Notes: generated by a model not told the origin, from the letters alone. Counted from the stretch's first letter, positions 7,690-47,419 are shown. The stretch is DNA of 62,213 nucleotides from Gammaproteobacteria bacterium (GCA_041499655.1 JBGQKQ010000002.1:1-62213), one strand, 5' to 3'. Translations and numbers: made by a program.

Positions 7690-8874
<1,185 letters not shown>

Positions 8875-8886
8875 GCAGGCCACACT

Positions 8887-8917
8887 AAAAAAAGCCGGCT
8901 TTGCGCCGGCTTTTTTT
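8887..8917. terminator. Bidirectional rho-independent terminator between metK and the MmeI-like gene
   Basis: AAAAAAA-GCCGGC-tttgc-GCCGGC-TTTTTTT: a GC stem flanked by an A7 tract and a T7 tract. It lies 13 nt after the metK stop and 17 nt after the stop of the convergent 8934..12410 gene. Confidence 0.8.
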
Positions 8918-8933
8918 GCTTCTTCGAGCACCC

Positions 8934-11900
8934 TCAATCCACTCCCAGCACGCCGCCTTTCACGCGGCGCGCACGACCAAGGGCCACCAAGGTTTCGATC
9001 AGCGGGGCGAGACCCTTCTTCCATGGCCCCTTGCCACTGAAGCGTTCAGCGATTTGCTCTTCCGATAGCGGCACATTCGCATCGGTAAGCACCTGCGCAA
9101 CGAGGCGGATGCGCTCGGGCAGCTCCTTCGGCCAAGGCAGGCGCGATACCGTGCCCGTCGCCGCCGACGTGTCCCCTCCCTCCACAACGTCGAGTGTTCC
9201 CTGAATCGATGCTGGACGGGTCGTCCCTTGGATCTGGAACTCCGGCCGCAACCAGCGCACTTGGCCTTTGGCTTCTTCGGCGGCGCGCTCGGCGTTGAGC
9301 GCCACGAGCCGCTCCAACAACGCGTCGTCCAGCACGCGCTTCGCCTCATCGCGCGACGCGGGCACTACCCCGCCTCCAGGCGCAATGCCGTTCACAGCGT
9401 TCATCAACGACGCAAGATCATTCCAGCCATAGGCATCGAGCACTGCGAGGTCCAGTTCATCGTGGTACTGCTTCAACACCGCCACCAAGCCCTGTTCGTG
9501 GATCACTTTGTCCTTGGCGTTCAAGGCTGCGCCGTCCTTGAGTTTCTCCAACACGTTGTACATGCCAGTCAGCGTGAGCGCCGGGTGCTGCGCCTGCTGG
9601 CGCTTGCGATGGGCATCGAGCTGTGCAGCAAGGTTACGGATGCGGGTTTGCTGCACTGCATTTGCGGGCGGGAATGGGAAAGTCTCAAAGCACCGGCCTT
9701 TGTTGTAAACAGGTCGATCTTCTAGGGTACCGCCAGCTGCAAGCGACCATTGCACGTGAACACAGCTTGATAACACGCCAAGACACCAAGCATCTTCAAA
9801 ACCAAATACAACCAATCTGTGCTCTGGGCGACTGCCGCCCTCAAGAAATGTGAATACACGATGTTTCGCTGTCTCTGCGGTGACCACGAATCTACTCAAC
9901 CCAGAAACAGACGCTCGCACCTGTTCATTACTACGGCGGAACAACCACCAGTTACTGCGAACTCGTGGATCTCGGTTCTCTTGCCTTTCTGGGTAAACTC
10001 GCTCATGAAGTTGTTGCCATAGCTCGGGCGCTTCACTTCTAAGTTGGCTTTCGCTTAATCCAAAAGCATCAATTACCCATACGTTCCGACACTGGTTCAG
10101 TATGTCCTCGCCATTGCGCAAAGGGAAAACTAGTTTCGCAGCAGTAGGGCTGCGCAACGAAAGCGATTTGACATCCTCGGCGCTTACCAAGAATCCACGT
10201 CCGCCAAGAATAAATCCGGTGTTCGCAATTCTCGAATTTGAATCAAGAATTGCTGCGCCGGCGACGTTGACGCCAACTGAGAGATCGGCGTGAATCTGCC
10301 CCACCTTGGTCGAGAAGGTCACAGACAGTGCGTCGTCCGTGGTCTCTTGTTCGTCTGCAACAGTGAGTAATTGACCCTCACCTTCGCCGGCCCTCCCTAC
10401 GCTCATGGCAATCCGCACCGCCGCGCCGTCGGTGCTGTCCACCCAGGGATGATCCGGAATGACGAACGCCAGCGACAGCGGCGACTTGGCAGCCATGTGC
10501 TTCTCGATCACGCGACGATTGAAAGTCTGGCGCAGACTGTTGGTAGTGATAAAGCCAAAGCGCCTCAACTTCGCCGTGCGCGCAAGTTCAGCTGCTTTGT
10601 TCCACCAATACATTACGAAATCCGCAGAATCCGGCACCTCTCGCCATGCTTCACGTAAAGCCTCGACATAGCCGTCGCCGAGCGAATCTCGGATTTTCCC
10701 CTTGCCCAAGAACGGTGGGTTGCCCACCACATAATCCGCCTCCGGCCACTTAGCATTGCGCGGATTGACATAGCGCTCCAGCGCGACACGTGCCGATTCG
10801 TCCGGCACGTCTTCACCGGTGGCCGGATGCTTTTTCATGGTCTTGCCGTCCCAGCGCGTCACCGGCCGGCCGTCGTCACCAAGTACGTACTCCACGCGGT
10901 CGTAGGCCAAGACCGCGTCGCGATGCTCGATGTTTCCGAAATCGCGCAGGATCGGTGGCGGCGGCGGCACTTTACCGCGGGTGCGAAAATGCCATTGCAG
11001 ATAGCCGATCCACAACACCAGTTCCGCGATAGCGGCGGCGCGCGGATTGATCTCGATGCCAAGCAGTTGATGCGGATCGACAGTGACGCCCGCGGTTTCG
11101 AGGCGCGCCTGGGGTTCGCCGAGAACTTCGAGCTGATTCAGCACTTCGCCTTCGAGGCGTTTCAGGTGTTCCAGCGTAACGTATAGAAAGTTGCCTGAGC
11201 CGCAGGCCGGGTCGAGGACACGCACGGCGCAAAGTTTGTGATGGAATGCGTGCACGGCTTTGCGTGCATCGTCGAGTTTGCCTTCACCGGCAAGGAGTAG
11301 CGCCGCGCCCTGTGCGTTCTTCCAATCCTCGCGCAAGGGCTCGATCACTGTCGGCAACACCAGCCGTTCCACGTAGGCGCGTGGTGTGTAATGCGCGCCG
11401 AGTGCGTGGCGCTCCTCGGGCATCAGCGCACGTTCGAGCAGCGTACCGAAAATCGCCGGCTCCACTTCGCGCCAATTGAACTTCGCCGCTTCCAGCAGTA
11501 GAGCGATCTGGTCCCGGTCGAGCGGCAGCACCTGCGGGTCCTTGAACAACTTGCCGTTGAACCGCAGCAAGTCCGCGCGTACCGAGACCGAAAAGCTTCC
11601 GATGTCCATCGCGCGCCATAGTTCGCCCACCAAAGGAACGAACTGGGCCGGATTGCCCTTGAGGCTTTCGAGCAGATCGACAAAGGCGCGCTTGGGCAGC
11701 AGGCCCACGTCCTCGGCGAACATGGAGAACAGGCCGCGTGTCAAAAAACCGGCAACCAGCTCGGGCGCGTGGCCCGCACCCTCTAGCGTCTGGGCGATCT
11801 TTGCGAGCTGCACGGCGATCTCGCGCGTTACCTTGGCCGAGCGGCGTGAGGGATCGAGCGATACCGGGTCGGTCCACACCGCGCGCAGCGTGTTGCGCAC

Positions 11901-12410
11901 GCCCTCGTCGCGAAGGTCGGTCATCCGAATGCGATGCGAGCGCGGATCGGGGAAAGGCGTGTAGGTGGCCCCCGAGCGCGAGAATTCTGCGTAGAGCTCG
12001 ATCACCTGCCCTACATCTACCACCACCACGAACGGCGGGCGGCTTTCGCCGGCGGGCAGTGCACGGGCGTACTGCTCGGCCTGGCCACGAGCGCGCAACA
12101 GCGCGTCATCGAAGCCCTGACCCAGGCTCTTTTTGATCTTCTTTGCTTCGAGCACGAAGGCACCGCGGCGATAGAGGTCGATGAAACCGGGTGACTCAGT
12201 ACCGTCACCGTGGCGAAAGGTAATGCGCCGCTCGAACACGTAGGCATTGTCGCGCGTGTCTTCGCGAGCGGGATCTGGCTGAGGCAATTCGAGCAGCGCG
12301 CACAGCTCGGTAAGAAAAAGCTGGTAGTTGGCCCGCTCCGAGCCGCTGGCTTCTTCCCAGCGGGTAATAAAGGCGTCGATGGGCGATTCAGCCGGTTTAG
12401 CCTTGGGCAT
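8934..12410 (-). CDS. MmeI-like type IIL/IIG restriction-modification enzyme (fused PD-(D/E)xK nuclease + N6-adenine DNA methyltransferase + TRD)
   Basis: 1158 aa. N-terminal FIDLYRRGAFVLEAKK (D-x9-E-x-K, the same spacing as the MmeI nuclease motif). SAM motif I VLDPACGSGNFL. Catalytic motif IV GNPPFLG. These are followed by a low-GC variable segment and a helical C-terminal tail. Confidence 0.8.
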   Translation of the reverse strand: MPKAKPAESPIDAFITRWEEASGSERANYQLFLTELCALLELPQPDPAREDTRDNAYVFERRITFRHGDGTESPGFIDLYRRGAFVLEAKKIKKSLGQGFDDALLRARGQAEQYARALPAGESRPPFVVVVDVGQVIELYAEFSRSGATYTPFPDPRSHRIRMTDLRDEGVRNTLRAVWTDPVSLDPSRRSAKVTREIAVQLAKIAQTLEGAGHAPELVAGFLTRGLFSMFAEDVGLLPKRAFVDLLESLKGNPAQFVPLVGELWRAMDIGSFSVSVRADLLRFNGKLFKDPQVLPLDRDQIALLLEAAKFNWREVEPAIFGTLLERALMPEERHALGAHYTPRAYVERLVLPTVIEPLREDWKNAQGAALLLAGEGKLDDARKAVHAFHHKLCAVRVLDPACGSGNFLYVTLEHLKRLEGEVLNQLEVLGEPQARLETAGVTVDPHQLLGIEINPRAAAIAELVLWIGYLQWHFRTRGKVPPPPPILRDFGNIEHRDAVLAYDRVEYVLGDDGRPVTRWDGKTMKKHPATGEDVPDESARVALERYVNPRNAKWPEADYVVGNPPFLGKGKIRDSLGDGYVEALREAWREVPDSADFVMYWWNKAAELARTAKLRRFGFITTNSLRQTFNRRVIEKHMAAKSPLSLAFVIPDHPWVDSTDGAAVRIAMSVGRAGEGEGQLLTVADEQETTDDALSVTFSTKVGQIHADLSVGVNVAGAAILDSNSRIANTGFILGGRGFLVSAEDVKSLSLRSPTAAKLVFPLRNGEDILNQCRNVWVIDAFGLSESQLRSEAPELWQQLHERVYPERQENRDPRVRSNWWLFRRSNEQVRASVSGLSRFVVTAETAKHRVFTFLEGGSRPEHRLVVFGFEDAWCLGVLSSCVHVQWSLAAGGTLEDRPVYNKGRCFETFPFPPANAVQQTRIRNLAAQLDAHRKRQQAQHPALTLTGMYNVLEKLKDGAALNAKDKVIHEQGLVAVLKQYHDELDLAVLDAYGWNDLASLMNAVNGIAPGGGVVPASRDEAKRVLDDALLERLVALNAERAAEEAKGQVRWLRPEFQIQGTTRPASIQGTLDVVEGGDTSAATGTVSRLPWPKELPERIRLVAQVLTDANVPLSEEQIAERFSGKGPWKKGLAPLIETLVALGRARRVKGGVLGVD

Positions 12411-12486
12411 GTGGCAACCTTAGCCGAGGGCTCGCGTTGGTGCAAATCACCCGGAAGCGATGACTGGCGCGGGTGTCCAGCCTATT

Positions 12487-13023
12487 TCATGCCGTGAACA
12501 GCTTGCCCAAAAGCTCGGCCGCACGAGCGAGAGCAGAATGAGCGTATGGAGGTGTGAGGATCGTCTGCGCTTCAGGATGTGAGGCCCAGTTGCGCAAGTC
12601 CTTGGCGATATCCCATAGGGCCTTGTCATCGTCCCTAATCAGGCCGCGCTCGGTCAGCGTCTGCATCAGCCGACCGAAGGAGACAGGGCGACCGGTGCCG
12701 TCCTTTTGCGCCACGACAACCGGGATACCCAGTTGTGCGCAGCGGGCGCGAATGCCGGCTTCCATGACCCGGTAGCACTGTTCCGCACCCAGCGTCATCA
12801 GCGGATAGAAAAACCAGCCGTAGATCATCGCCCCGCGCGCCACCTCGAATAGCGCGGCGATTTCCTGCGGTACGCGGGCGTCGAGTTGCACGCGTGAGAA
12901 GCCTCCTACCCAAGCCTCCGGCGTGCCACGCCCAAAGGCACGCGAAATATCGGACTGTTGCAAATTGGCAGCGTTAATACGTTTAAAGCCGTGATGTAAG
13001 TCCGCGTTGTCTTCGTCGGTCAT
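12487..13023 (-). CDS. Hypothetical 178-aa helical protein, possibly DUF4145-like (RM/abortive-infection associated)
   Basis: ATG 13023 is preceded by GGAGAA; the track's longer start at 13113 has no RBS. The C-terminal pattern LWDIAKDLRNWASHPE...ARAAELLGKLF resembles the DUF4145 LR..GN.aaH signature. I could not verify this. Confidence 0.5.
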   Translation of the reverse strand: MTDEDNADLHHGFKRINAANLQQSDISRAFGRGTPEAWVGGFSRVQLDARVPQEIAALFEVARGAMIYGWFFYPLMTLGAEQCYRVMEAGIRARCAQLGIPVVVAQKDGTGRPVSFGRLMQTLTERGLIRDDDKALWDIAKDLRNWASHPEAQTILTPPYAHSALARAAELLGKLFTA

Positions 13024-13226
13024 ACTAAGATTTCTCCGCGAAAAGCATGATCTAGGATGGCTTAGACCAGGGGCATCAAGGTCCGCACTGATTTCGACCT
13101 TTAGACGCTTCAATGCGTTTATCCGTAGCTAGCGATGTGCGCGAGGCGCAGCAGCCTCATTGACTCATTTCACGCCAAATCCCTTTAACGTCTTAGCGCA
13201 CCGCACAGTAGACAGAGAGGGCAAAC

Positions 13227-16200
13227 CTACACCAGCGAACGTCGGCTGATCGCAAATCGTGCATCCGTAATGATTGCCTCAGCCTTGTCGATCGGCTCAA
13301 TACCGCCAACGTGAAGAATATCGAGGTCACAGCGTCTGCCGGCGTGCACGATGGCGGCGGCGGCGAGCTCAAGTGCAGCTATTGTCCGGTGCTCACGCAG
13401 CCACGAGCCAAACAACTGGAAAATCCGTCCAACTTGCCCGCCCTGATTGAAGTAACGGTCGATCCAATGACCAATCCAGTAAATATCGTCCTTGGTGAGC
13501 AACGTATCCCAGTGCGAAACGATTCCGGAATCGTCGAGATATTCGACTTCGCGCCACTGCCCTGTCAGGCGCCCATCAAGATGAGTCTGACGGAATTCAA
13601 GCCAGCCTCGATCATTGCAGAGTTCCCAGAAGGCGTGGATTGCTGAATCGTCAAGGTAGTCGAGGTAAGGCACAAGTGCCTCGACCTGTTCAATACGGCT
13701 AACCCCTGGATGGCCGGACATCTTTATCCCAAAGTGCATATCGCAGTATTTCAACATTTCCTTCGCGTCGGGGCATTTCGACATAGCCTCTTGAGCTAAG
13801 GCACACGAAATCGGCGTGGCAAGATAAAGAGCAGCTTGAACAAAATATGACGAATATCGGAGGTGCTGCCAATGCTTTACTAACAACTTTTCACCGGTCG
13901 CAGGTTTTAGGCGCATTACGAATTCGGATGTAGACGGGTCGGTTTCGTATTGAATCCCCCATGCAGTATCCACTTTGGTACTTCTACGTTGAAATGCCTC
14001 ATCGAGTGCATTGGTCAGATCATCGGACCAGATGTATCGACCAAGTTGCCACCAGAAACCACGCTTATCAGTTTTGAGTTTTTCGAGCATTGCTGGAATT
14101 GCTGCCCTATCGCCACGTTTCAGTCTTGCAAACAGAATGTCATCCGCGAGAGATGCCGGAACCTCTACAGTACGCAAGAGCGAAATATCGTCTGGCGCTG
14201 ACGTAGTCGCCCAGAGAAGGAAGGCCTGTCGGCGAAGATATTTGTCATGATCAATATCTTCCCAGAGTTCCTTTAACCGCCGCCGTGAATCCAACGACAT
14301 TCGTGCACCTTCTTCACGCTGCCGGCGTTCCCAATCGCTTCTCACGCTAATCGGAAAAAACCAGTAATCCTCTTTCCCTTCAAATTCTCGGCTGCGGGCC
14401 GCGAATTCGCGCGCGATGAACTCGACTGCATCTGGATGATCGATGCCTCGAAGCATGCAAGTGATCGGCCAATGTAACTCCTTTTGTTTTGCACGCTCAA
14501 TAAAATAATGCAGAGATGATTCGGGTAATGATTTCTTAAACGCCCAGGAAATATGATCGGCCGCAAGTGCGTTTCGAGGGGAGGACGAGCCCTCTTTGAC
14601 ACCCTTGTCAGGTAATGCCGCCCAGGCATCGCAGACCGGTCCGAGCAGCCGGTCCGATTTGTTGCCACAGCACTCCGCGGCAGCCCACAGATAGCCAGCA
14701 AGACGTTCCGTTCTATCTGGATCGGACGCCCAACACGCAGCAATGGCATCTGCGAGAGAAGGCTCGGCGAAATGACCGGCCAAGCGGAGCGCTCCGGTTC
14801 GCGCGCGACCCGATAAATCAGATTGATTCAGCAGATCGTCGAGCATGCGTATGAGTGTCTTTCCGAAACGAACCTTCGCATGTGCGATTTGATGATCGTG
14901 CCAAGGTGCGGTGACACCGGGTTCAAGTCGAGAACACAGTCGAATACCGGCTTTCAAATCACCATTTCGAAAGCGAGCTTGCAGGGTGGCCCATGTCTCG
15001 TCGCTAAATCGATCTGTTATGGCAAGAACGTGCGACGACTCTGTCTCAGACAATGCATGAAGGGCGGCCCACCTCAGCGCGCGGTTCGCACGATCATGCG
15101 TACCCGCGGTGTCAAGCCAAGTCTCAATAGCACGTAACACTGCGTGATGGATGTCTGCGCTAGGCTCACGAAATGCCTTAAGGGCATGGAAAAGTGCGAG
15201 GGGATTGGATTCCATCACCCGCTTGGCCATGTCTGCCGAAATGTCGGGGGCAGCTAGAGCGGCACCGATCACATCGGCAAAGAAAGGCTCCGTTAGGATG
15301 ACATCTTCAAGCTCACCAGATTGCATCGAAGCGGCAAGTACGTCAGACAAAAGCCACGCACGGACACGGTCGTGACGAAACGCGAGTCGCTCCACGTTAC
15401 CTGTTTCTATGAGACGCACCACTTCGCCACGTTTAACAATCTGGCGCAATGCTGCGAGACGATCAGGCTGATTGCTAAACCATCCTCGGATTTCCACCCA
15501 ATTTGGATCGACTCGACGATAAGTCAGAATTCCTCTGGCAAGCGCCTTTAGCGTAGTTCGATATTCAGTCAACGTGAAATCGCTCGCACTACTTGCGAGG
15601 CTGCGGAGCCTGGCGTTAATGAAATTGCCAATGACCTGCGGTGGTTCCGGCTTCTTAACGAAATCGTATAACGCTACGAGGAGCGGATCGTTCCCCAACG
15701 CTTCTGCCAGATTGTCAGCCTCAAGTGAGGACACGGGAACATTGACGAGCGCGGCATTGCACTCGATCGCCGTGCGGGCCTCATTAGCCGTGAATGGCGC
15801 CGCTGATATAGAGAGGGATTCAATGCGTTTCCTCGCCTCATCCGAGATTGTCACAAGAGTTTTAGGCCAAACGGGACAAAACAATCCCCAGTTCAAACGT
15901 TCTGTAGAGACACTTTCTGGCCGTACTCCAGCCCATCCAACTAAACGTTCAAGCAAGAGTGCGGGGTTTTCAGACCAGTTCACATCCTCGACAACAACAA
16001 GAAAAGGGTCTTCGGGTGAGCAAATTGCACGTACCCTTGCACCAGCGTCCGCTTCTAGCTTTGGATGAATCTTTCTGAGTTCAGCATCAACGGCTTGGTC
16101 AAAAGTCCTGTGCGCGGCCAGGGTTTCGTTCATTAGAACGAGACCGCATCCACCCGCATCAATGTGGGCTTTTAAATGCTTATAACAAGCGATGGTTTTT

Positions 16201-16922
16201 CCAGAACCAGATTCCCCAACGAGAAACGCGACGGGACGTGGTGATCGTTCCGCCACTACACGATCAAGCTCTCGGCTGACTAAGCTTTCTAATTGTGCCG
16301 CTGGACGATTGGCTTCGATGCTTGAACGAGAAAGATCACGCAGCAATTGCTTAGACAAACGCTGCTGAACGAGTCCAAGAAAATTATTTCTGAGCCACTC
16401 TCCGTCCGGGTCATTGTCGAGAAAATCAGCAATGCGTGAGCATGACCAGATGTCGATGCTGACTCCATAGCCCTTCGCTGCTGCCTCGATATCTCGCGTC
16501 AGTTCTTCTGGGGGCTCTCTGTTGGTGGTTAAGGCCAATGTCACGAGAAGCCCTGGAGTGCGTTTTCGCTCCTCTTCGACTATACCCATTGTTTTGAGTA
16601 CATCGCCGGGCGGGGCAGTGGGTTTTCGCCCTTTCGAAGGCCTGACTGTCGACGGGTCGTGCAACCATTTCTTTCTTAAATCATCGCTAGCGCCACTGGC
16701 ATGATGAGCAATGACCATATGAGGCGGAACCGCTCGCGCCACGAATGCAATCCCGTCGACGGGTGATTTGACGGTCTTGCCGTCAGCGTTCATGCCGGGA
16801 TGAGTAAGATTGCTGTAAAGCGCAGGGGCACCTGTACGTAAAACCGCCGTCGCTAGCCTCTCGAACAAGCCGGCATCAGTAATTTTCGAGAGCGCACGGA
16901 TTGTTTCACCGTGATCTGTCAT
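13227..16922 (-). CDS. Large tripartite P-loop NTPase (STAND-like): unknown N-terminal domain + NTPase + HEAT-like repeat C-terminus; candidate defence protein
   Basis: 1231-aa ORF in ~47% GC DNA. Walker A FLVGESGSGKT (aa ~233-243, nt ~16194-16217). Walker B FLVVVEDVN (aa ~307-315). Winged-helix-like LAFRHDRVRAWLLSDVL (aa ~513-529). About 700 aa of helical repeats follow, including RGDRAAIPAMLEKLKTD. ATG 16922 is preceded by AAGGTGG. Confidence 0.75.
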   Translation of the reverse strand: MTDHGETIRALSKITDAGLFERLATAVLRTGAPALYSNLTHPGMNADGKTVKSPVDGIAFVARAVPPHMVIAHHASGASDDLRKKWLHDPSTVRPSKGRKPTAPPGDVLKTMGIVEEERKRTPGLLVTLALTTNREPPEELTRDIEAAAKGYGVSIDIWSCSRIADFLDNDPDGEWLRNNFLGLVQQRLSKQLLRDLSRSSIEANRPAAQLESLVSRELDRVVAERSPRPVAFLVGESGSGKTIACYKHLKAHIDAGGCGLVLMNETLAAHRTFDQAVDAELRKIHPKLEADAGARVRAICSPEDPFLVVVEDVNWSENPALLLERLVGWAGVRPESVSTERLNWGLFCPVWPKTLVTISDEARKRIESLSISAAPFTANEARTAIECNAALVNVPVSSLEADNLAEALGNDPLLVALYDFVKKPEPPQVIGNFINARLRSLASSASDFTLTEYRTTLKALARGILTYRRVDPNWVEIRGWFSNQPDRLAALRQIVKRGEVVRLIETGNVERLAFRHDRVRAWLLSDVLAASMQSGELEDVILTEPFFADVIGAALAAPDISADMAKRVMESNPLALFHALKAFREPSADIHHAVLRAIETWLDTAGTHDRANRALRWAALHALSETESSHVLAITDRFSDETWATLQARFRNGDLKAGIRLCSRLEPGVTAPWHDHQIAHAKVRFGKTLIRMLDDLLNQSDLSGRARTGALRLAGHFAEPSLADAIAACWASDPDRTERLAGYLWAAAECCGNKSDRLLGPVCDAWAALPDKGVKEGSSSPRNALAADHISWAFKKSLPESSLHYFIERAKQKELHWPITCMLRGIDHPDAVEFIAREFAARSREFEGKEDYWFFPISVRSDWERRQREEGARMSLDSRRRLKELWEDIDHDKYLRRQAFLLWATTSAPDDISLLRTVEVPASLADDILFARLKRGDRAAIPAMLEKLKTDKRGFWWQLGRYIWSDDLTNALDEAFQRRSTKVDTAWGIQYETDPSTSEFVMRLKPATGEKLLVKHWQHLRYSSYFVQAALYLATPISCALAQEAMSKCPDAKEMLKYCDMHFGIKMSGHPGVSRIEQVEALVPYLDYLDDSAIHAFWELCNDRGWLEFRQTHLDGRLTGQWREVEYLDDSGIVSHWDTLLTKDDIYWIGHWIDRYFNQGGQVGRIFQLFGSWLREHRTIAALELAAAAIVHAGRRCDLDILHVGGIEPIDKAEAIITDARFAISRRSLV

Positions 16923-16961
16923 GCCGCCACCTTAGCGGATGCAGTTTCAGGGTGCAATTGG

Positions 16962-16998
16962 CCGGAACGGCAAGCTGGACGTAGCGTTCCGGTTTTTT
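16962..16998 (+). terminator. Orphan rho-independent terminator-like hairpin at the ahcY-proximal edge of the insertion
   Basis: CCGGAACG-(15 nt)-CGTTCCGG followed by TTTTTT on the + strand. No + strand gene lies upstream of it. Confidence 0.5.
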
Positions 16999-17057
16999 CC
17001 TTTCACAAACCGGCCCTGCGAATGGCATCGAGCTCTGCGTCTGAGGTATAATTCGCC

Positions 17058-17138
17058 CTCCTCGAGGAGCGTTGCAACGGGCAGCCGGTTCCGGCACCCG
17101 CCAGGCTCGGGGGATACACCAGTGCAACCGCGCTCGCA
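17058..17138 (+). promoter_or_regulatory. SAH (S-adenosylhomocysteine) riboswitch in the ahcY leader
   Basis: Contains the conserved SAH-element blocks GAGGAGCGUUGCAAC ... CCAGGCUCGGGGG ... GCAACCGCGCUCGC, immediately upstream of ahcY. A TATAAT at 17047-17052 sits just 5' of it. The AGGAGG SD is at 17156-17161. Confidence 0.8.
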
Positions 17139-17168
17139 AACTTTTTTCGAAAGAAAGGAGGGCGCGAG

Positions 17169-18599
<1,431 letters not shown>

Positions 18600-44486: not shown

Positions 44487-45241
44487 AGAAACGCACCATG
44501 GAGACGAGCCTCGCGGCGCAGCCGCCCCGGCTCATCCGCTCGGTCGAGCGGCGCCTCTTCCTCAGGCAGGGACTGTCGCTCGGCGCCCTGGCCATGCTCT
44601 CGGGCTGCAACCTGACCGACGACGAAAGCGTGCAGCGGGTGCTCGAGGGCATGTCGCGCTGGAACGACCGCGCCCAGGGCTGGATCTTCAGCCCGACCAA
44701 GCTCGCTCCGGAATTCCCGGAGAGCGCGATCACCAAGCCCTTCCCCTTCAACGCGTTCTACACCGAGGACGAGATCACCGCCGTCGACGGCAAGAGCTAC
44801 CAGCTCGAACTCGCCGGCATGATCCGCGACAAGAAACCCTGGACCCTGCCCGAGCTCTACGCGCTGCCGCAGACTTCGCAAATCACCCGCCACATCTGCA
44901 TCGAGGGCTGGAGCGCGATCGGCAAGTGGAGCGGCGTACGCTTCTCGGATTTCCTCTCGCGCATCGGCGCCGACACCACCGCGAAATACATCGCCTTCGA
45001 CTGCGCCGACGACTACTCGACCAGCATCGACATGGCTACGGCGCTGCACCCGCAGACGCTGCTTACCTTCCGCTTCGCCGACGAGATCCTGCCGCCGAAG
45101 TACGGCTTCCCCATGAAGCTGCGCATCCCCACCAAGCTCGGCTTCAAGAACCCCAAGCACATCGTGGCCATGGAGGTCACGAACGATTATCCGGGCGGCT
45201 ACTGGGAAGACCAGGGCTACAACTGGTTCAGCGGGTCCTGA
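44483..45241 (+). CDS. Molybdopterin-dependent oxidoreductase (sulfite-oxidase fold, YedY/MsrP-like catalytic subunit)
   Basis: ATG 44483 is preceded by AAGGAGGG and forms ATGA with the cytochrome b stop. RRLFLRQGLSLGALAML is a Tat-like signal. ITRHICIEGWSAIGKWSGVRF is the Mo-cofactor cysteine region. The track start 43886 is over-extended. Confidence 0.8.
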   Translation: MKKRTMETSLAAQPPRLIRSVERRLFLRQGLSLGALAMLSGCNLTDDESVQRVLEGMSRWNDRAQGWIFSPTKLAPEFPESAITKPFPFNAFYTEDEITAVDGKSYQLELAGMIRDKKPWTLPELYALPQTSQITRHICIEGWSAIGKWSGVRFSDFLSRIGADTTAKYIAFDCADDYSTSIDMATALHPQTLLTFRFADEILPPKYGFPMKLRIPTKLGFKNPKHIVAMEVTNDYPGGYWEDQGYNWFSGS

Positions 45242-45268
45242 GGTCGCGGCGTCACATTTGAGGTGGCA

Positions 45269-45541
45269 CTAACGGTTGCCCGCGCGCGCCGCTTTTGCGC
45301 GCGTCCGCGTAGCCCGCTTTGTCAGACCGCGGCGCGTCCCTTCTGCGCGCATGAGCGAACGAAGCGCCTTGTTCACCGCGCTCGAATTCCTGAACCGTCT
45401 GTGCACATCCGGTTCGAGCACAACGACGTTGCTGCTTTCCATGTAGCGTTGGTAGTTCTTTCCGCGTACACCGCCCGAGAAATCGTACTCCGGGCGCATT
45501 TCTGGTTCCTTGGCCTTAAGTTTCATAGTCTTTTCGTTCAT
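45269..45541 (-). CDS. brnA: BrnA-type antitoxin
   Basis: 90 aa. MRPEYDFSGGVRGKNY motif. Overlaps the brnT 3' end by 26 nt. Confidence 0.75.
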   Translation of the reverse strand: MNEKTMKLKAKEPEMRPEYDFSGGVRGKNYQRYMESSNVVVLEPDVHRRFRNSSAVNKALRSLMRAEGTRRGLTKRATRTRAKAARAGNR

Positions 45542-45785
45542 TAGCTGTGGCTCTACGAGCCGAAATAATGCGAATGGTATCCCCTTGTTCGGTATGGCAC
45601 ACGACCAGAAGAGTTCCCGAGCTGGAGTGCCCTATGGTAACGAACCGCTCCTGGCCAACTGAGTGATCTGGGTCGCACACCGTGACGGCCAGCGAATCTC
45701 CAAATACGGTTGTGCCCTCTTGAAATGCAATTCCGTGGACTCGCTTGTTACGGCGTTCCTTGTTCGGATCCCAAGTGAAACGCAT
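45516..45785 (-). CDS. brnT: BrnT-family (DUF497) ribonuclease toxin
   Basis: 89 aa. MRFTWDPNKERRNKRVHGIAFQEGTTVF...IRIISARRATANERKDY. Confidence 0.85.
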   Translation of the reverse strand: MRFTWDPNKERRNKRVHGIAFQEGTTVFGDSLAVTVCDPDHSVGQERFVTIGHSSSGTLLVVCHTEQGDTIRIISARRATANERKDYET

Positions 45786-45876
45786 CTACGTCTGAGTGAA
45801 GAGCCTTGCGCGGTCTAACGTCCCGGTTCGGGTGCGCCGGCAGGCGTCGCCCGCAACCGGCGATTAGCACCCAGTT

Positions 45877-46530
45877 TCATTCGGCTACCTCGATGACCTG
45901 CCCATTGGCGTTGACAAAGAGTGCCGTAATCTGAGTGCGTTGCTTAGCTAGGCGTGGCAAGCGGTCCCAGAGCCTGCGAAATTGCTGAACGTCCGGCAGA
46001 GCAATCGAATATTTTGACGCCGGATCATTCATTCTTTGAAGGGTCTCGCCCAGAATGCCAATGAAGTAGTTCACTCGCATCTCCGGCCGAGAGCCGATGC
46101 CTTTCACCTCGACGACCCATCTTTTCTCGTCGCGCACAGCTTTAATGTCGATGCCGCGTTCGTGGCCCCAAGCAACTTCAGCTTCCCAACCGGTTGAACG
46201 AAACCACTCGCGAAGATGGTGCTTCAACCTGTCCTCAGACAGATCTTCGCCTGATGCGCTGGCGGAGATCTTCGGCCCTTCCTGCATTGGCGCCTCCGCC
46301 GCGCCGCTCAAGTAGTTGCCTATCAAACCGTCGTCACGCCGCCGACGAATAAGGCGTCTCTTTTTCGCAAGTCCGCGCGCGGCAATATTCACCGATTGCT
46401 GCGGCGCTGAAGCACCCTGCAAATGATTCGCTATCTGACGGTCGCTTAGGCCAGGGGTTTTGCTGACCAGCAAGAGGACGCGCTGAGGCAGAGATGCCAT
46501 AAGATTTCGAATGCTGATTTTTGTCAGCAC
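45877..46530 (-). CDS. Hypothetical winged-helix + PD-(D/E)xK-like nuclease-fold protein
   Basis: 217 aa (207 aa from ATG 46500). N-terminal wHTH-like LLVSKTPGLSDRQIANHL. C-terminal ERGIDIKAVRDEKRWVVEVKG (D...E-V-K). ~54% GC. Confidence 0.6.
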   Translation of the reverse strand: MLTKISIRNLMASLPQRVLLLVSKTPGLSDRQIANHLQGASAPQQSVNIAARGLAKKRRLIRRRRDDGLIGNYLSGAAEAPMQEGPKISASASGEDLSEDRLKHHLREWFRSTGWEAEVAWGHERGIDIKAVRDEKRWVVEVKGIGSRPEMRVNYFIGILGETLQRMNDPASKYSIALPDVQQFRRLWDRLPRLAKQRTQITALFVNANGQVIEVAE

Positions 46531-46534
46531 TCAG

Positions 46535-46612
46535 TCACAATCGACGTGCTACGTAAATCAAGATGGCGACCAAGATCAATCCCGTCAAAGCACCATACGC
46601 CAAGTACCGCAT
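46535..46612 (-). CDS. Unannotated 25-aa hydrophobic small ORF (MRYLAYGALTGLILVAILIYVARRL)
   Basis: Not in the ORF track (too short). ATG 46612 is preceded by AGGAGGAG with a 5-nt gap. One TM-length hydrophobic stretch ends in RR. Its stop lies 4 nt upstream of GTG 46530, the start of the next gene. Confidence 0.5.
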   Translation of the reverse strand: MRYLAYGALTGLILVAILIYVARRL

Positions 46613-46762
46613 CTGCTCCTCCTACTGCGTGCTAACTAGCAATGAACGTCACTCATCCCATCGTAAAACCATGTATCAGTATATGCAAACATCTACCGGT
46701 ACATAGCACCCTATGCCGCTATATATCGGTGTCCGACGGATTCCAGCCGGTATAATTTTCTG

Positions 46763-47419
46763 ATGCGTCTCATCTCAGTCGCTGCTCTGCTTTTCGCGAC
46801 AGCCGCTTCCGCCCAGGATCCGGCGTTGCTGGTCGCCGAAGCGAAGAAGCGCTGGGCCGAAAGCCCTCACGGCCCGATGCTCGAGCGGATTCTTCCGCCC
46901 ACTTTCGAGCCGCGACAGCTTCCCGCGCCGAAGTCGCGCGGCGCGCGCCTTGTCGTCCAGTACTGCATGCAGTGCCACAACCTGCCCAACCCGGCGATGC
47001 ATCACGCGGCAAAGTGGCCGACGATTCTCGAGCGCATGGTTTTGCGCATGCGGGGCAAGGGGAACATGGGCGAGCTGATGCACGAGATGATGGCGGGGGT
47101 GCAGGCGCCCACCGACGAGGAGGCGGGTGTTCTTCTCGCGTATCTGCGAAGGAATGCTCAGAAGCCGATCGACCCGAAGAAGTACCCGGAAATTTTCAGC
47201 GCCGAGGGCCGCTCGTTCAAGCTCGCGTGCGAGCAGTGCCACGTGCTTCCCGACCCGATGCGCCACACCGCCGCCGAGTGGCCGGCGGTGGTCGCGCGCA
47301 TGGAAAAAAATATGGAGTGGATGAACCGCGTCGTCGGCAACCAGCATCCTCCCGACGAACCGCAGCTCAGGATCGACGAGATCAACGCCTTCCTGGTCAG
47401 GCACGCCCGGAAGGGCTAG
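46763..47419 (+). CDS. Periplasmic diheme c-type cytochrome
   Basis: 218 aa. Signal peptide MRLISVAALLFATAASA. Two CxxCH sites (CMQCH, CEQCH) in two similar repeats. Confidence 0.8.
   Translation: MRLISVAALLFATAASAQDPALLVAEAKKRWAESPHGPMLERILPPTFEPRQLPAPKSRGARLVVQYCMQCHNLPNPAMHHAAKWPTILERMVLRMRGKGNMGELMHEMMAGVQAPTDEEAGVLLAYLRRNAQKPIDPKKYPEIFSAEGRSFKLACEQCHVLPDPMRHTAAEWPAVVARMEKNMEWMNRVVGNQHPPDEPQLRIDEINAFLVRHARKG

Follow-up and report, generated by a model that had tools for sequence, protein, structure and literature searches.

Prokaryotic STAND families associated with defence have been surveyed by Lee et al. (2026, PMC13581612), whose account covers Avs1-24 and bNACHT, with 589 clades and 684 sensor clusters. 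Within this group, Avs4 (EcAvs4, 8DGF) senses the phage portal protein and carries its nuclease-fold effector, STAND NTPase and helical-repeat sensor on a single polypeptide. The archaeal Walker-type ATPases PABY2304 (2QEN) and SSO1545 (2FNA), together with Cdc6/Orc1, are proteins of about 350 aa without a nuclease head, a solenoid tail or a defence context, while Mrr and PD-(D/E)xK nuclease domains are found in MspJI, EcoT38I, BstEII and Card1. A further point of comparison is provided by the Hma-embedded genes HEC-01 to HEC-09 of Payne et al. (2024, 10.1101/2024.01.29.577857), none of which encodes a STAND protein; in that study, embedding in Hma predicted a defence function in seven of the nine cases tested.

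Here we describe a 1231-aa protein encoded in a 62,213-nucleotide stretch of gammaproteobacterial DNA (the window), which is probably a single-protein, mobile sensor directed against phages (or other MGEs), of the antiviral-STAND or bacterial NLR-like type. It has the three-domain anatomy of Avs4, resembles Avs4, STAND and NLR proteins at the level of the fold, and has kept both its NTPase residues and its putative catalytic residues. A preliminary description had proposed an effector-NTPase-repeat-sensor layout, and AF2 models and Foldseek searches uphold all three parts, in a genomic context rich in defence genes. Any suggestion that the architecture is unusual found no support. The nuclease head, STAND switch and helical sensor make up a known design; this is an uncharacterised protein of a known kind, and the type of system it represents is not new.

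When the model of the N-terminal domain was searched against the PDB with Foldseek, the best match was Avs4 (E 5.4e-4 and prob 1.0 to chain 8dgf_A, the aligned part of that chain being unspecified). Avs4 is also a significant match for residues 196-1231 (E 1.5e-4), and both proteins are encoded by defence-island genes. In contrast, no sequence similarity to Avs4 is detectable (PADLOC 0/38 members, PDB profile searches empty), Avs4 is longer than our protein by about 300 aa, the sensor of our protein resembles HEAT solenoids (CAND1, importins), and its N-terminal domain lacks the canonical (D/E/Q)xK. In the spirit of the two defence criteria applied by Lee et al. (PMC13581612), it combines a predicted N-terminal effector fold of immune type with an enrichment of defence genes within 5 kb; its sensor likewise exceeds 400 aa and consists of alpha-helical repeats, whereas its effector is invisible to CDD/Pfam profiles.

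The gene and its family

The gene is complete, begins with ATG and is directly preceded by a Shine-Dalgarno-like AAGGTGG. Full-length homologues with 43-68% identity align with the protein from residue 1 to its end at 100% coverage, so that both the start codon and the integrity of the gene are sound. The reading frame and motif positions given in the preliminary description were confirmed when the exact coordinates were translated (Table 1), with FRHDR lying within LAFRHDRVRAWLLSDVL. Its statement on base composition was right in that the gene has the lowest GC content of the window, which averages 64.2%, but the value itself is 52.7% rather than about 47%. The GC content of the surrounding insertion is 52.7-60%, and the gap between metK and ahcY measures only 63-366 bp in 26 of 41 related genomes.

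Table 1. Features of the locus, numbered from the first nucleotide of the window; residue numbers refer to the 1231-aa protein.
Feature	Position	Strand	Evidence
Low-GC insertion of ~8.2 kb between metK and the SAH riboswitch/ahcY, holding the STAND-like gene, ORF208 and the Type IIG RM gene	8875..17057	.	GC, gap comparison
MmeI-like Type IIG restriction-modification enzyme, 1158 aa	8934..12410	-	PADLOC REase_MTase_IIG, 1486 bits; Pfam MmeI_N, MmeI_hel, MmeI_Mtase, MmeI_TRD
ORF208, 208 aa, between the Type IIG RM and STAND-like genes	12487..13113	-	
Tripartite STAND-like NTPase gene, complete, 1231 aa	13227..16922	-	ORF list and translation; stop codon 13227-13229
All-alpha HEAT-like solenoid, aa 536-1231, putative sensor	13230..15317	-	AF2 and Foldseek
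Helical domain and winged-helix domain, aa 401-535	15318..15722	-	AF2 helices and wing; Foldseek STAND/Cdc6 lid-WH modules
FRHDR, aa 515-519, winged-helix histidine motif	15366..15380	-	R516/H517/D518/R519 >=97% kept
GxP-like LGNDPLLVAL, aa 409-418	15669..15698	-	G410, D412, P413, L414, L415 >=97% kept
Linker and P-loop nucleotide-binding domain, aa 206-400	15723..16307	-	AF2 beta-alpha-beta core, Foldseek, AAA_16 sub-threshold
Walker B FLVVVED, aa 307-313	15984..16004	-	E312/D313/N315 >=97% kept (57 members)
Walker A GESGSGKT, aa 236-243	16194..16217	-	G239/G241/K242 >=97% kept (57 members)
N-terminal domain, aa 1-205, PD-(D/E)xK/Mrr-like restriction-endonuclease fold, putative nuclease effector	16308..16922	-	AF2 and Foldseek
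K85, helix after beta3, candidate relocated catalytic lysine	16668..16670	-	Kept 57/57
H73-H74, strand beta3, site of canonical (D/E/Q)xK	16701..16706	-	Strand E68-75 in model
P54-V-D56, 'PD'-like, start of strand beta2	16755..16763	-	P 56/57, D 57/57; strand E57-60
E21, helix alpha1 (FE motif), candidate metal ligand	16860..16862	-	Kept 57/57
SAH riboswitch	17058-17142		

The protein belongs to a family of length-conserved proteins that fall into at least 577 clusters when grouped at 50% identity. The family is patchily spread over more than 10 bacterial phyla and the archaea and includes homologues on eight plasmids, with none found in the phage database. The deviating GC content (52.7% against 64.2%), the insertion, the patchy spread and the plasmid-borne homologues show that the gene was acquired horizontally. 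We found no neighbour that accompanies the gene throughout the family or in its main part, which fits a single-gene system. In a divergent Rhodobacteraceae subfamily, a partner of 865 aa always lies directly downstream.

No model in Pfam, NCBIfam or PADLOC reached its threshold for the 1231-aa protein. With the PADLOC v2.0.0 family HMMs, which include Avs1-Avs5 (AVAST types I-V), no family matched at E<=0.01 for the window protein and 38 aligned homologues, and membership of Avs1-5, which we considered, is unsupported (0/38 members). The Pfam model AAA_16 gave 19.5 bits on the window protein against a cut-off of 32.6 and reached E<=0.01 in 16 of the 38 members (best 2.9e-6), again below threshold; NB-ARC matched one of the 38 (E 0.0049). 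PDB sequence and profile searches were empty, and hhalign against neighbouring NACHT proteins gave E 0.067 at a probability of 0.83%, so that these searches and PADLOC yielded no sequence-profile link to characterised STAND or Avs families. We found no named Avs family that matches the protein, nor any mention of the family accessions in the full texts searched. The family is widespread and named by no database that we searched, although its design is already well known.

The NTPase module and the solenoid

The AF2 model of residues 196-1231 (pLDDT 88.5, pTM 0.78) predicts a tripartite NBD-HD-WHD module of STAND type, in which residues 307-320 of the model (aa 502-515) form the beta-hairpin wing of the winged helix. 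Foldseek matched this central module to 2qen, 2fna, Cdc6/Orc1, NLRP14, NLRC4, Avs4 and Apaf-1 (prob 1.0). PABY2304, SSO1545 and Cdc6/Orc1 gave the best global NBD-lid-WH matches (target-normalised TM 0.53, 0.51), and since the TM-scores are modest and these best matches are not classical STAND defence proteins, the comparison leaves some doubt as to whether the module belongs to STAND or to an adjacent AAA+ clade. Two hallmarks of STAND proteins are present. One is LGNDPLL, which, given its position in the model, we take to be the GxP motif (GLPLA in NB-ARC). The other is H517 of FRHDR, presumably the conserved winged-helix (MHD-type) histidine, as its position in the model also suggests; hhalign placed it on the histidine of LQHQLIQEWF in the neighbouring NACHT proteins, in a collinear alignment that is not significant. 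The earlier reading of the middle segment as an NTPase with a winged helix is thus borne out by the matches to STAND/Cdc6 modules, the GxP-like motif and the histidine. A lack of conservation of the Walker motifs among homologues had been named as grounds for overturning that reading, but both are at least 97% conserved in our set of 57 family members, which reaches down to 26% identity.

The remaining residues, about 696 in number, form an all-helical solenoid in the model, with a pLDDT mostly above 85. Its Foldseek matches include CAND1, RanBP5 and importin-beta (prob 1.0) as well as transportin, in agreement with the HEAT-like repeats of about 700 aa that had been proposed. In Pfam, HEAT_2 was found in only one of the 38 members. 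The sensor region is conserved to the same degree as the NTPase (0.48-0.52 among the 57 members), and the predicted solenoid is well above the 400 aa expected of a repeat sensor of the Avs functional class.

The N-terminal domain

The preliminary description had left the N-terminal block unassigned, noting a loose resemblance to Mrr and the lack of a clear (E/Q)xK. These observations agree with our results: even at E<=10, Pfam gave no match of any kind to residues 1-205 and no nuclease family, including Mrr_cat, in 31 N-terminal domains, and the resemblance to Mrr holds at the level of the fold. AF2 models residues 1-205 as an alpha/beta domain (pLDDT 89.3, pTM 0.82) with helices at 17-31 and 79-87 and strands at 57-60, 68-75 and 126-133. 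After Avs4, its next PDB matches in Foldseek are the PD-(D/E)xK enzymes MspJI, EcoT38I, BstEII and Card1, and in the viral library BFVD it matches Mrr-like, T7-endonuclease-I-like and PD-(D/E)XK proteins. It has in common with these enzymes the alpha-beta-beta-beta-alpha-beta core, the acidic residue of helix 1 (a glutamate) and the (P)D at the start of beta2 that are expected of a PD-(D/E)xK/Mrr-like nuclease. We therefore predict that it is an effector of immune type with a restriction-endonuclease (PD-(D/E)xK) fold and putative nuclease activity.

The domain differs from these nucleases in beta3, where the 57 members carry (H/E)-H-T at positions 73-75, without a lysine, in place of (D/E/Q)xK. 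Position 73 is H in 46 members, E in seven and A in four; position 74 is H in 56 and Q in one; and 52 of the 57 have T at position 75. The residues kept down to 26% identity are E21, P54, D56, H74, K85, D107, K110, D169 and R178. Among them, K85 and K110 are the sole invariant lysines and both lie in helices; K85, in the helix that follows beta3, is a candidate for a relocated catalytic lysine. Given the missing canonical motif, catalysis by this domain is not assured. The altered beta3 and the lack of Pfam nuclease matches could also mean that the STAND switch is kept while the N-terminal domain is no DNase at all, being instead a degenerate fold that binds DNA or a ligand or mediates oligomerisation, or an enzyme for another substrate such as RNA, with the protective or lethal activity supplied in trans, for example by the adjacent RM enzyme or another partner; the constant downstream partner of the Rhodobacteraceae subfamily and the repeated embedding of the gene in RM/Hma operons would fit such an arrangement. 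We consider this unlikely, because E21, P54-x-D56, H74 and K85 are near-invariant, the seven divergent members with E at position 73 restore the acidic residue of the motif, and a constant partner is missing from the main family. Moreover, conservation within the protein is highest in this domain (mean 0.61 against about 0.50 for the rest), as expected for an enzyme.

Proposed mechanism

The trigger, oligomerisation, nuclease activity and abortive outcome may be pictured by analogy with Avs3, Avs4 and Avs7. At rest, the protein would be an ADP-bound, autoinhibited monomer in which His517 of the winged helix touches the nucleotide. A conserved protein of the invader could then dock on the HEAT-like solenoid, opening the NBD-HD-WHD module and allowing ATP to be bound through K242 of Walker A and E312/D313 of Walker B. 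The ATP-bound protein might subsequently oligomerise, gathering the N-terminal restriction-endonuclease-fold domains into an active nuclease that would degrade DNA and abort the infection.

Genomic context

The homologues are found in a defence-rich, island-like setting. One (locus L081) lies within a Type I RM operon, between hsdS and hsdR, where PrrC-type genes are also located; another adjoins a Type ISP RM gene and AbiE; and further loci combine Kiwa with AbiE and HsdM, AbiE with Wadjet and SIR2, or Shedu with Lit, while other neighbours include toxin-antitoxin modules and integrases. In eight loci it lies inside an Hma system, between HmaA and HmaB/HmaC, beside a HEC-01A-like ATPase. Among 65 species-level loci, a defence gene was found no further than 5 kb away in at least 11 (binomial P 4.5e-9; the null of 0.0153 derives from DefenseFinder statistics (PMC13581612), whereas our detection used PADLOC and Pfam). 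The eight Hma loci share the 'guilt-by-embedding' setting of the HECs (10.1101/2024.01.29.577857), although the neighbour in the window is a Type IIG RM gene and not Hma, and the family has no PADLOC v2.0.0 model.

Such proximity to restriction genes, namely the position between hsdS and hsdR, the adjoining Type IIG and Type ISP genes and the Hma loci, raises the question of whether the solenoid might guard restriction, sensing anti-restriction factors or the loss of the neighbouring RM/Hma system by a PrrC/PARIS-like logic instead of a structural or replicative phage protein. This appears decidedly unlikely, as RM genes are absent from the neighbourhood of most loci, the surroundings vary widely, and embedding is a general trait of defence genes that does not in itself imply functional coupling (10.1101/2024.01.29.577857). 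It is very unlikely that the protein works as a Type IV-like, NTP-dependent restriction enzyme, in which the N-terminal nuclease itself would cleave DNA that is foreign or modified, the NTPase would serve as motor or regulator, and no protein would be sensed. The association with RM loci and the matches of the N-terminal domain to restriction enzymes, including the modification-dependent MspJI, are compatible with it, but the NTPase resembles switch-type STAND/Cdc6 proteins and not translocases (McrB, SF2 helicases), a HEAT solenoid of 700 aa is typical of protein-binding sensors, and Pfam detected no DNA-recognition domain in the window protein and 38 members. A non-defence STAND/AAA+ protein, such as a signalling or regulatory scaffold sitting by chance in mobile DNA, is highly improbable: STAND clades do swap defence and non-defence roles (PMC13581612) and the nearest NTPase structures (2qen, 2fna, Cdc6/Orc1) are not immune proteins, yet Pfam found no HTH or other regulator output domain in the window protein and 38 members, the N-terminus has a nuclease fold, and the distribution is sporadic, including plasmids, with strong enrichment in defence contexts.

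The third gene of the insertion, ORF208, has no match in Pfam, PADLOC or NCBIfam; tblastn revealed weak similarity to ORFs near the homologues in two loci (L008 and L080).

The STAND gene and the block that carries it

The STAND gene is an uninterrupted ORF with an ATG start and a Shine-Dalgarno-like AAGGTGG just 5′ of it, and it probably encodes a single-gene antiviral STAND (Avs) system. Translation of the exact coordinates bore out the ORF and every motif position quoted in the preliminary description, with GESGSGKT at residues 236-243, FLVVVED at 307-313, and FRHDR at 515-519 inside LAFRHDRVRAWLLSDVL. Promoter and terminator scans around the gene gave counts no higher than the shuffle expectation.

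The gene forms a minus-strand block with ORF208, a 208-aa ORF, and the gene for an MmeI-like Type IIG restriction-modification (RM) enzyme containing the Pfam domains MmeI_N, MmeI_hel, MmeI_Mtase and MmeI_TRD. The block lies between metK and an ahcY gene preceded by an SAH riboswitch, the position of which defines the right border of the insertion. The STAND gene has the lowest GC of the whole window, as had been described, but the figure of about 47% was wrong; we measured 52.7%, compared with 60.1% for the Type IIG gene, which shares the low-GC insertion and strand, 58.5% for ORF208, and 64.2% for the window. In 41 of 80 related genomes, most of them betaproteobacterial, metK is found upstream of ahcY at a distance of no more than 10 kb; in 26 of these 41 only 63-366 bp separate the two genes, while in the window the gap is 8294 bp. 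The drop in GC and the enlarged gap thus mark the block as a horizontally acquired insertion of about 8.2 kb. No tRNA or integrase that could serve as an integration marker was found in the window or flanking the insertion. Larger metK-ahcY gaps in other genomes (1-6.5 kb) were considered as islands and dropped, as their GC is native.

Coordinates of features in the window and of genes adjoining homologues at loci of other genomes (L handles)
Feature	Sequence	Coordinates	Strand	Remarks
metK	window	7690-8874		Left flank of inserted block
218-aa ORF	window	8368-9024	-	Antisense over metK 3′ end; no family match
MmeI-like Type IIG RM enzyme	window	8934-12410	-	Complete, 1158 aa; PADLOC REase_MTase_IIG, 1486 bits
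ORF208	window	12487-13113	-	No family match
STAND gene	window	13227-16922	-	1231-aa ORF
SAH riboswitch RF01057	window	17058-17142	+	58.2 bits, E 3.8e-8; immediately 5′ of ahcY
ahcY	window	17169-18599		Follows SAH riboswitch
Second low-GC patch	window	45000-47000		GC 0.56-0.59
90-aa ORF	window	45269-45541	-	Overlaps BrnT gene
BrnT-family RNase toxin gene	window	45516-45785	-	Pfam E 2.6e-26
217-aa ORF	window	45877-46530		No assignment
~865-aa partner gene	L058	13670-16267
~865-aa partner gene	L059	4008-6605
~865-aa partner gene	L068	3346-5946
~865-aa partner gene	L069	4159-6756
NACHT + HEAT + NCAB2 gene	L041	5131-9984
NACHT + HEAT + NCAB2 gene	L054	13730-18277
NACHT + HEAT + NCAB2 gene	L065	5374-9984
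NACHT + HEAT + NCAB2 gene	L073	1683-6221

ORF208 is a putative gene and may be a third defence component. In its C-terminus, the sequence LRNWASH forms an R-x4-H pattern that resembles HEPN motifs, and tblastn detected weak similarity, at E 2e-8 and 6e-7, to ORFs in locus L080 and directly upstream of the homologue in locus L008.

Predicted structure of the STAND protein

The only Pfam match of the STAND protein is to AAA_16, at 19.5 bits and thus below the 32.6-bit cut-off, and it had no match in NCBIfam, PADLOC or a phmmer search of PDB sequences. Profile searches of the PDB with the N-terminal domain and with residues 196-1231 likewise found nothing. Across 38 family members, Pfam detected AAA_16 in 16, AAA_22 in 5, and HEAT_2 and NB-ARC in one each. 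Given that no curated sequence model recognises the protein, AF2 was run with family alignments on two separate pieces, residues 1-205 and 196-1231.

In the model of residues 196-1231 (pLDDT 88.5, pTM 0.78), a P-loop NBD is followed by a helical domain and a winged helix, with FRHDR directly after the wing. The helical domain contains an invariant LGNDPLL, which we take to be GxP-like from its likeness to GLPLA of NB-ARC. Foldseek matched this module to two archaeal Walker ATPases, 2QEN (TM to target 0.53) and 2FNA (0.51), and also to Cdc6/Orc1, NLRP14, NLRC4, Avs4 (E 1.5e-4) and Apaf-1. The C-terminus, described earlier as helical and HEAT-like, is indeed predicted to be an all-alpha solenoid (residues ~536-1231), with matches to CAND1, RanBP5 and importin-beta. 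By its modelled structure and motifs, the protein is a STAND-type switch and would belong in the STAND superfamily; in curated models its AAA_16 score stays below threshold, and no sequence link of the family to a characterised STAND clade was detected with Pfam, NCBIfam, PADLOC, the PDB or hhalign. The proposal that it combines effector, NTPase and repeat sensor in an Avs/NLR-like layout is therefore supported by AF2 and Foldseek for all three parts, by the motifs, and by the defence context of the family.

The N-terminal domain

Residues 1-205 were modelled as an alpha/beta domain (pLDDT 89.3, pTM 0.82). Its top Foldseek match in the PDB is the Avs4 chain of 8DGF (E 5.4e-4, prob 1.0), followed by MspJI, EcoT38I, BstEII and the nuclease domain of Card1, and in a viral library it matched T7-endonuclease-I-like, Mrr-like, PD-(D/E)XK and Rpb5-N-domain proteins. 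All of these share the restriction-endonuclease fold, to which the domain can be firmly assigned; a specific affinity to Avs4 is a softer proposal, with TM-scores for the matches being modest (0.3-0.45) and the aligned part of the Avs4 chain not given by the output. The earlier, loose comparison with an Mrr-type core thus holds at the level of the fold, through the Mrr-like and restriction-enzyme matches.

In the predicted secondary structure, the conserved E21 falls in helix 1, and P54-x-D56 stands where beta2 begins. At the place in beta3 where (D/E/Q)xK would be expected, the family instead has (H/E)73-H74-T75: position 73 is His in 46 sequences, Glu in 7 and Ala in 4, position 74 is His in 56 of 57, and position 75 is Thr in 52 of 57; an invariant K85 occupies the helix predicted after beta3. 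Thus, the domain has the fold of the PD-(D/E)xK superfamily but not its beta3 motif, in agreement with the preliminary description, which had seen no clear (E/Q)xK. We think that this is probably a drifted, yet functional PD-(D/E)xK site, because its residues are invariant down to 26% identity, because divergent members regain a glutamate at position 73, and because conservation along the protein is highest in this domain (mean 0.61, and ~0.50 for the remainder, in the 57-sequence alignment). A beta3 strand of this kind might also be found in a head that is not catalytic, or not a DNase, and works with a partner in trans; this is unlikely, and clustering of about 1300 flanking ORFs from 80 loci yielded no family-wide partner gene.

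Distribution and conservation of the family

The STAND protein had 306 matches in a search of about 5.8 billion proteins. Nearly all of the best 120 are 1216-1247 aa long, with 99-100% query coverage and 43-68% identity, and they are nameless or "hypothetical protein" save for two source names that are clearly spurious. When the N-terminal 205 residues were used in an exhaustive HMM search, the matches comprised representatives of 671 clusters at 50% identity, 577 of which scored E<=1e-10. The 150 matches listed all have the same architecture or are fragments of it, and none of them places the domain in another context or carries the canonical motif. A scan of one genome per species found 76 loci in Alpha-, Beta- and Gammaproteobacteria, Acidobacteriota, Myxococcota, Bacteroidota, Cyanobacteria, Latescibacterota, Verrucomicrobiota, Planctomycetota, Actinomycetes, Leptospirales and one Methanosarcinales archaeon. 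Homologues also occur on eight plasmids, among them plasmids of Haloquadratum walsbyi and Halalkalicoccus, and none was found in the phage records searched.

Conservation was assessed in a 57-sequence alignment reaching down to 26% identity. At least 97% conservation was found in the N-terminal domain for F20, E21, P54, D56, H74, K85, W86, D107, K110, D169 and R178, and in the NTPase module for G239, G241 and K242 of Walker A and E312 and D313 of Walker B as well as N315, C349, P350, P353, G410, D412, P413, L414, L415, R516, H517, D518 and R519; in the C-terminal half it is seen for scattered Trp and Gly. An Avs-like reading would have been in difficulty if the Walker motifs had turned out not to be conserved among homologues, an objection that fails because G239, G241, K242, E312 and D313 are kept at this level.

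Genomic neighbourhood of the homologues

Homologues lie in similar surroundings. For example, in locus L081 (67% identity) the gene lies between hsdM-hsdS and hsdR of a Type I system, with RloB and an AAA_21 ATPase beside it, and in locus L082 it adjoins a Type ISP enzyme and AbiEi/AbiEii. The Gilvimarinus homologue directly follows KwaA/KwaB, with AbiE and HsdM downstream; that of Bradyrhizobium elkanii lies between AbiE and JetABCD, close to a SIR2 protein; that of Methylobacter, between TacA-GNAT and ParDE toxin-antitoxin modules; and those on Aliarcobacter and Haloquadratum plasmids, near Shedu and Lit genes and next to an integrase, respectively. In eight loci (L017, L023, L025, L028, L033, L034, L035 and L039), from Latescibacterota, Vicinamibacterales, Rhodothermaceae and others, it lies within an Hma defence system of HmaA helicase, HmaB DUF1156 methylase and HmaC DUF499 ATPase. 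Nested there too are AAA_21 or HEC-01A-like ATPases, an unassigned protein of ~190 aa and a small ORF resembling aspartyl proteases. Payne et al. (10.1101/2024.01.29.577857) found Hma-embedded genes to be defensive in 7 of 9 tests.

Counting only verified neighbours, a defence gene lies no more than 5 kb away in at least 11 of the 65 species-level loci, an excess with binomial P 4.5e-9 against the null of 0.0153 of Lee et al. 2026 (PMC13581612); this null derives from DefenseFinder, while our detection used PADLOC and Pfam. The presence of homologues in RM operons could suggest a guard of RM systems that senses anti-restriction factors, but with Kwa, Jet and toxin-antitoxin genes also among the neighbours, we find this quite unlikely.

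Two groups of homologues have neighbours of their own. In a subfamily of divergent Rhodobacteraceae homologues, which share 26-28% identity with the window protein, a ~865-aa gene always follows 10-655 bp downstream on the same strand (Table; also in L060 and L061). Its product has no Pfam or PADLOC match and contains a Cys-rich zinc-ribbon-like stretch, and this subfamily may be a two-gene system. Sphingomonad and other alphaproteobacterial homologues lie directly beside a 1500-1600-aa NACHT + HEAT + NCAB2 protein, which places two different STAND-type proteins next to each other. An hhalign comparison of the family with four NACHT proteins encoded beside sphingomonad homologues was non-significant (E 0.067), yet collinear, aligning Walker A with Walker A and FRHDRVRAWL with LQHQLIQEWF.

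Proposed mechanism

The analysis itself covers how the protein is built and conserved, what its folds resemble, and the mobility and context of its gene; from Avs3, Avs4 and Avs7 we infer, by analogy, the trigger, the oligomerisation, the nuclease activity and the outcome. At rest, the protein would be closed and hold ADP, with His517 in contact with the nucleotide. Binding of an invader protein to the solenoid would then lead to nucleotide exchange and ATP-dependent oligomerisation via the NBDs, so that the N-terminal nuclease-fold domains would be gathered and activated, DNA degraded, and the infection aborted. A restriction-endonuclease fold joined to an NTPase could also be that of a Type IV-like NTP-dependent restriction enzyme, which is very unlikely for a protein whose module has a helical domain, a winged helix and matches to Avs4 and Apaf-1. 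That the protein is a non-defence STAND scaffold is highly improbable beside the defence neighbours of its homologues.

A more detailed proposal, to which as a whole we would give only a small chance, is that this is a bacterial and archaeal STAND family absent from defence catalogues because profiles recognise neither its NTPase nor its effector. Its restriction-endonuclease-fold effector, with an E...PxD...(H/E)H...K signature, would be specific to the family and cut nucleic acid with a non-canonical active site, and its unusually well-conserved HEAT solenoid would respond to a ligand outside the phage structural proteins known to trigger Avs1-21. An anti-restriction factor would be a candidate ligand and, if true, would explain the recurrence inside RM and Hma operons.

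Relation to known systems

In its working logic of effector head, NTPase switch and sensor, the STAND protein may be likened to Avs, although PADLOC, which matched 0 of the 38 members, does not place the family within Avs1-5. The architecture is textbook Avs/NLR-like and represents no new mechanism class; the family itself is broad and unannotated, with a non-canonical effector site. Lee et al. 2026 described 589 STAND clades and 684 sensor clusters, with at least 90 structurally distinct defence STAND families whose sensors are mostly alpha-helical repeats. One more family with a nuclease-fold head is thus expected rather than surprising.

The family is invisible to the searched copies of Pfam, NCBIfam and PADLOC v2.0.0, and its accessions are not mentioned in the searchable full-text literature; its alignment could seed an HMM for defence-annotation tools. 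If our prediction of a single-gene antiviral STAND is correct, the prokaryotic NLR-like repertoire would gain another single-gene pattern-recognition receptor, ranging over many bacterial phyla, haloarchaea and Methanosarcinales. The N-terminal domain would be a test case for whether a PD-(D/E)xK site can drift to His-His and a relocated Lys and still serve as an immune effector, and the trigger of the HEAT-type sensor could lengthen the list of phage proteins sensed by bacteria.

Other features of the window

The 218-aa ORF overlapping metK is most likely a spurious high-GC antisense ORF, as it lacks a family match and its translation is Arg/Ala-rich and of low complexity. The second low-GC patch of the window contains a BrnT-family RNase toxin gene, near which lies the 217-aa ORF; the 90-aa ORF overlapping the toxin gene is probably the BrnA antitoxin.
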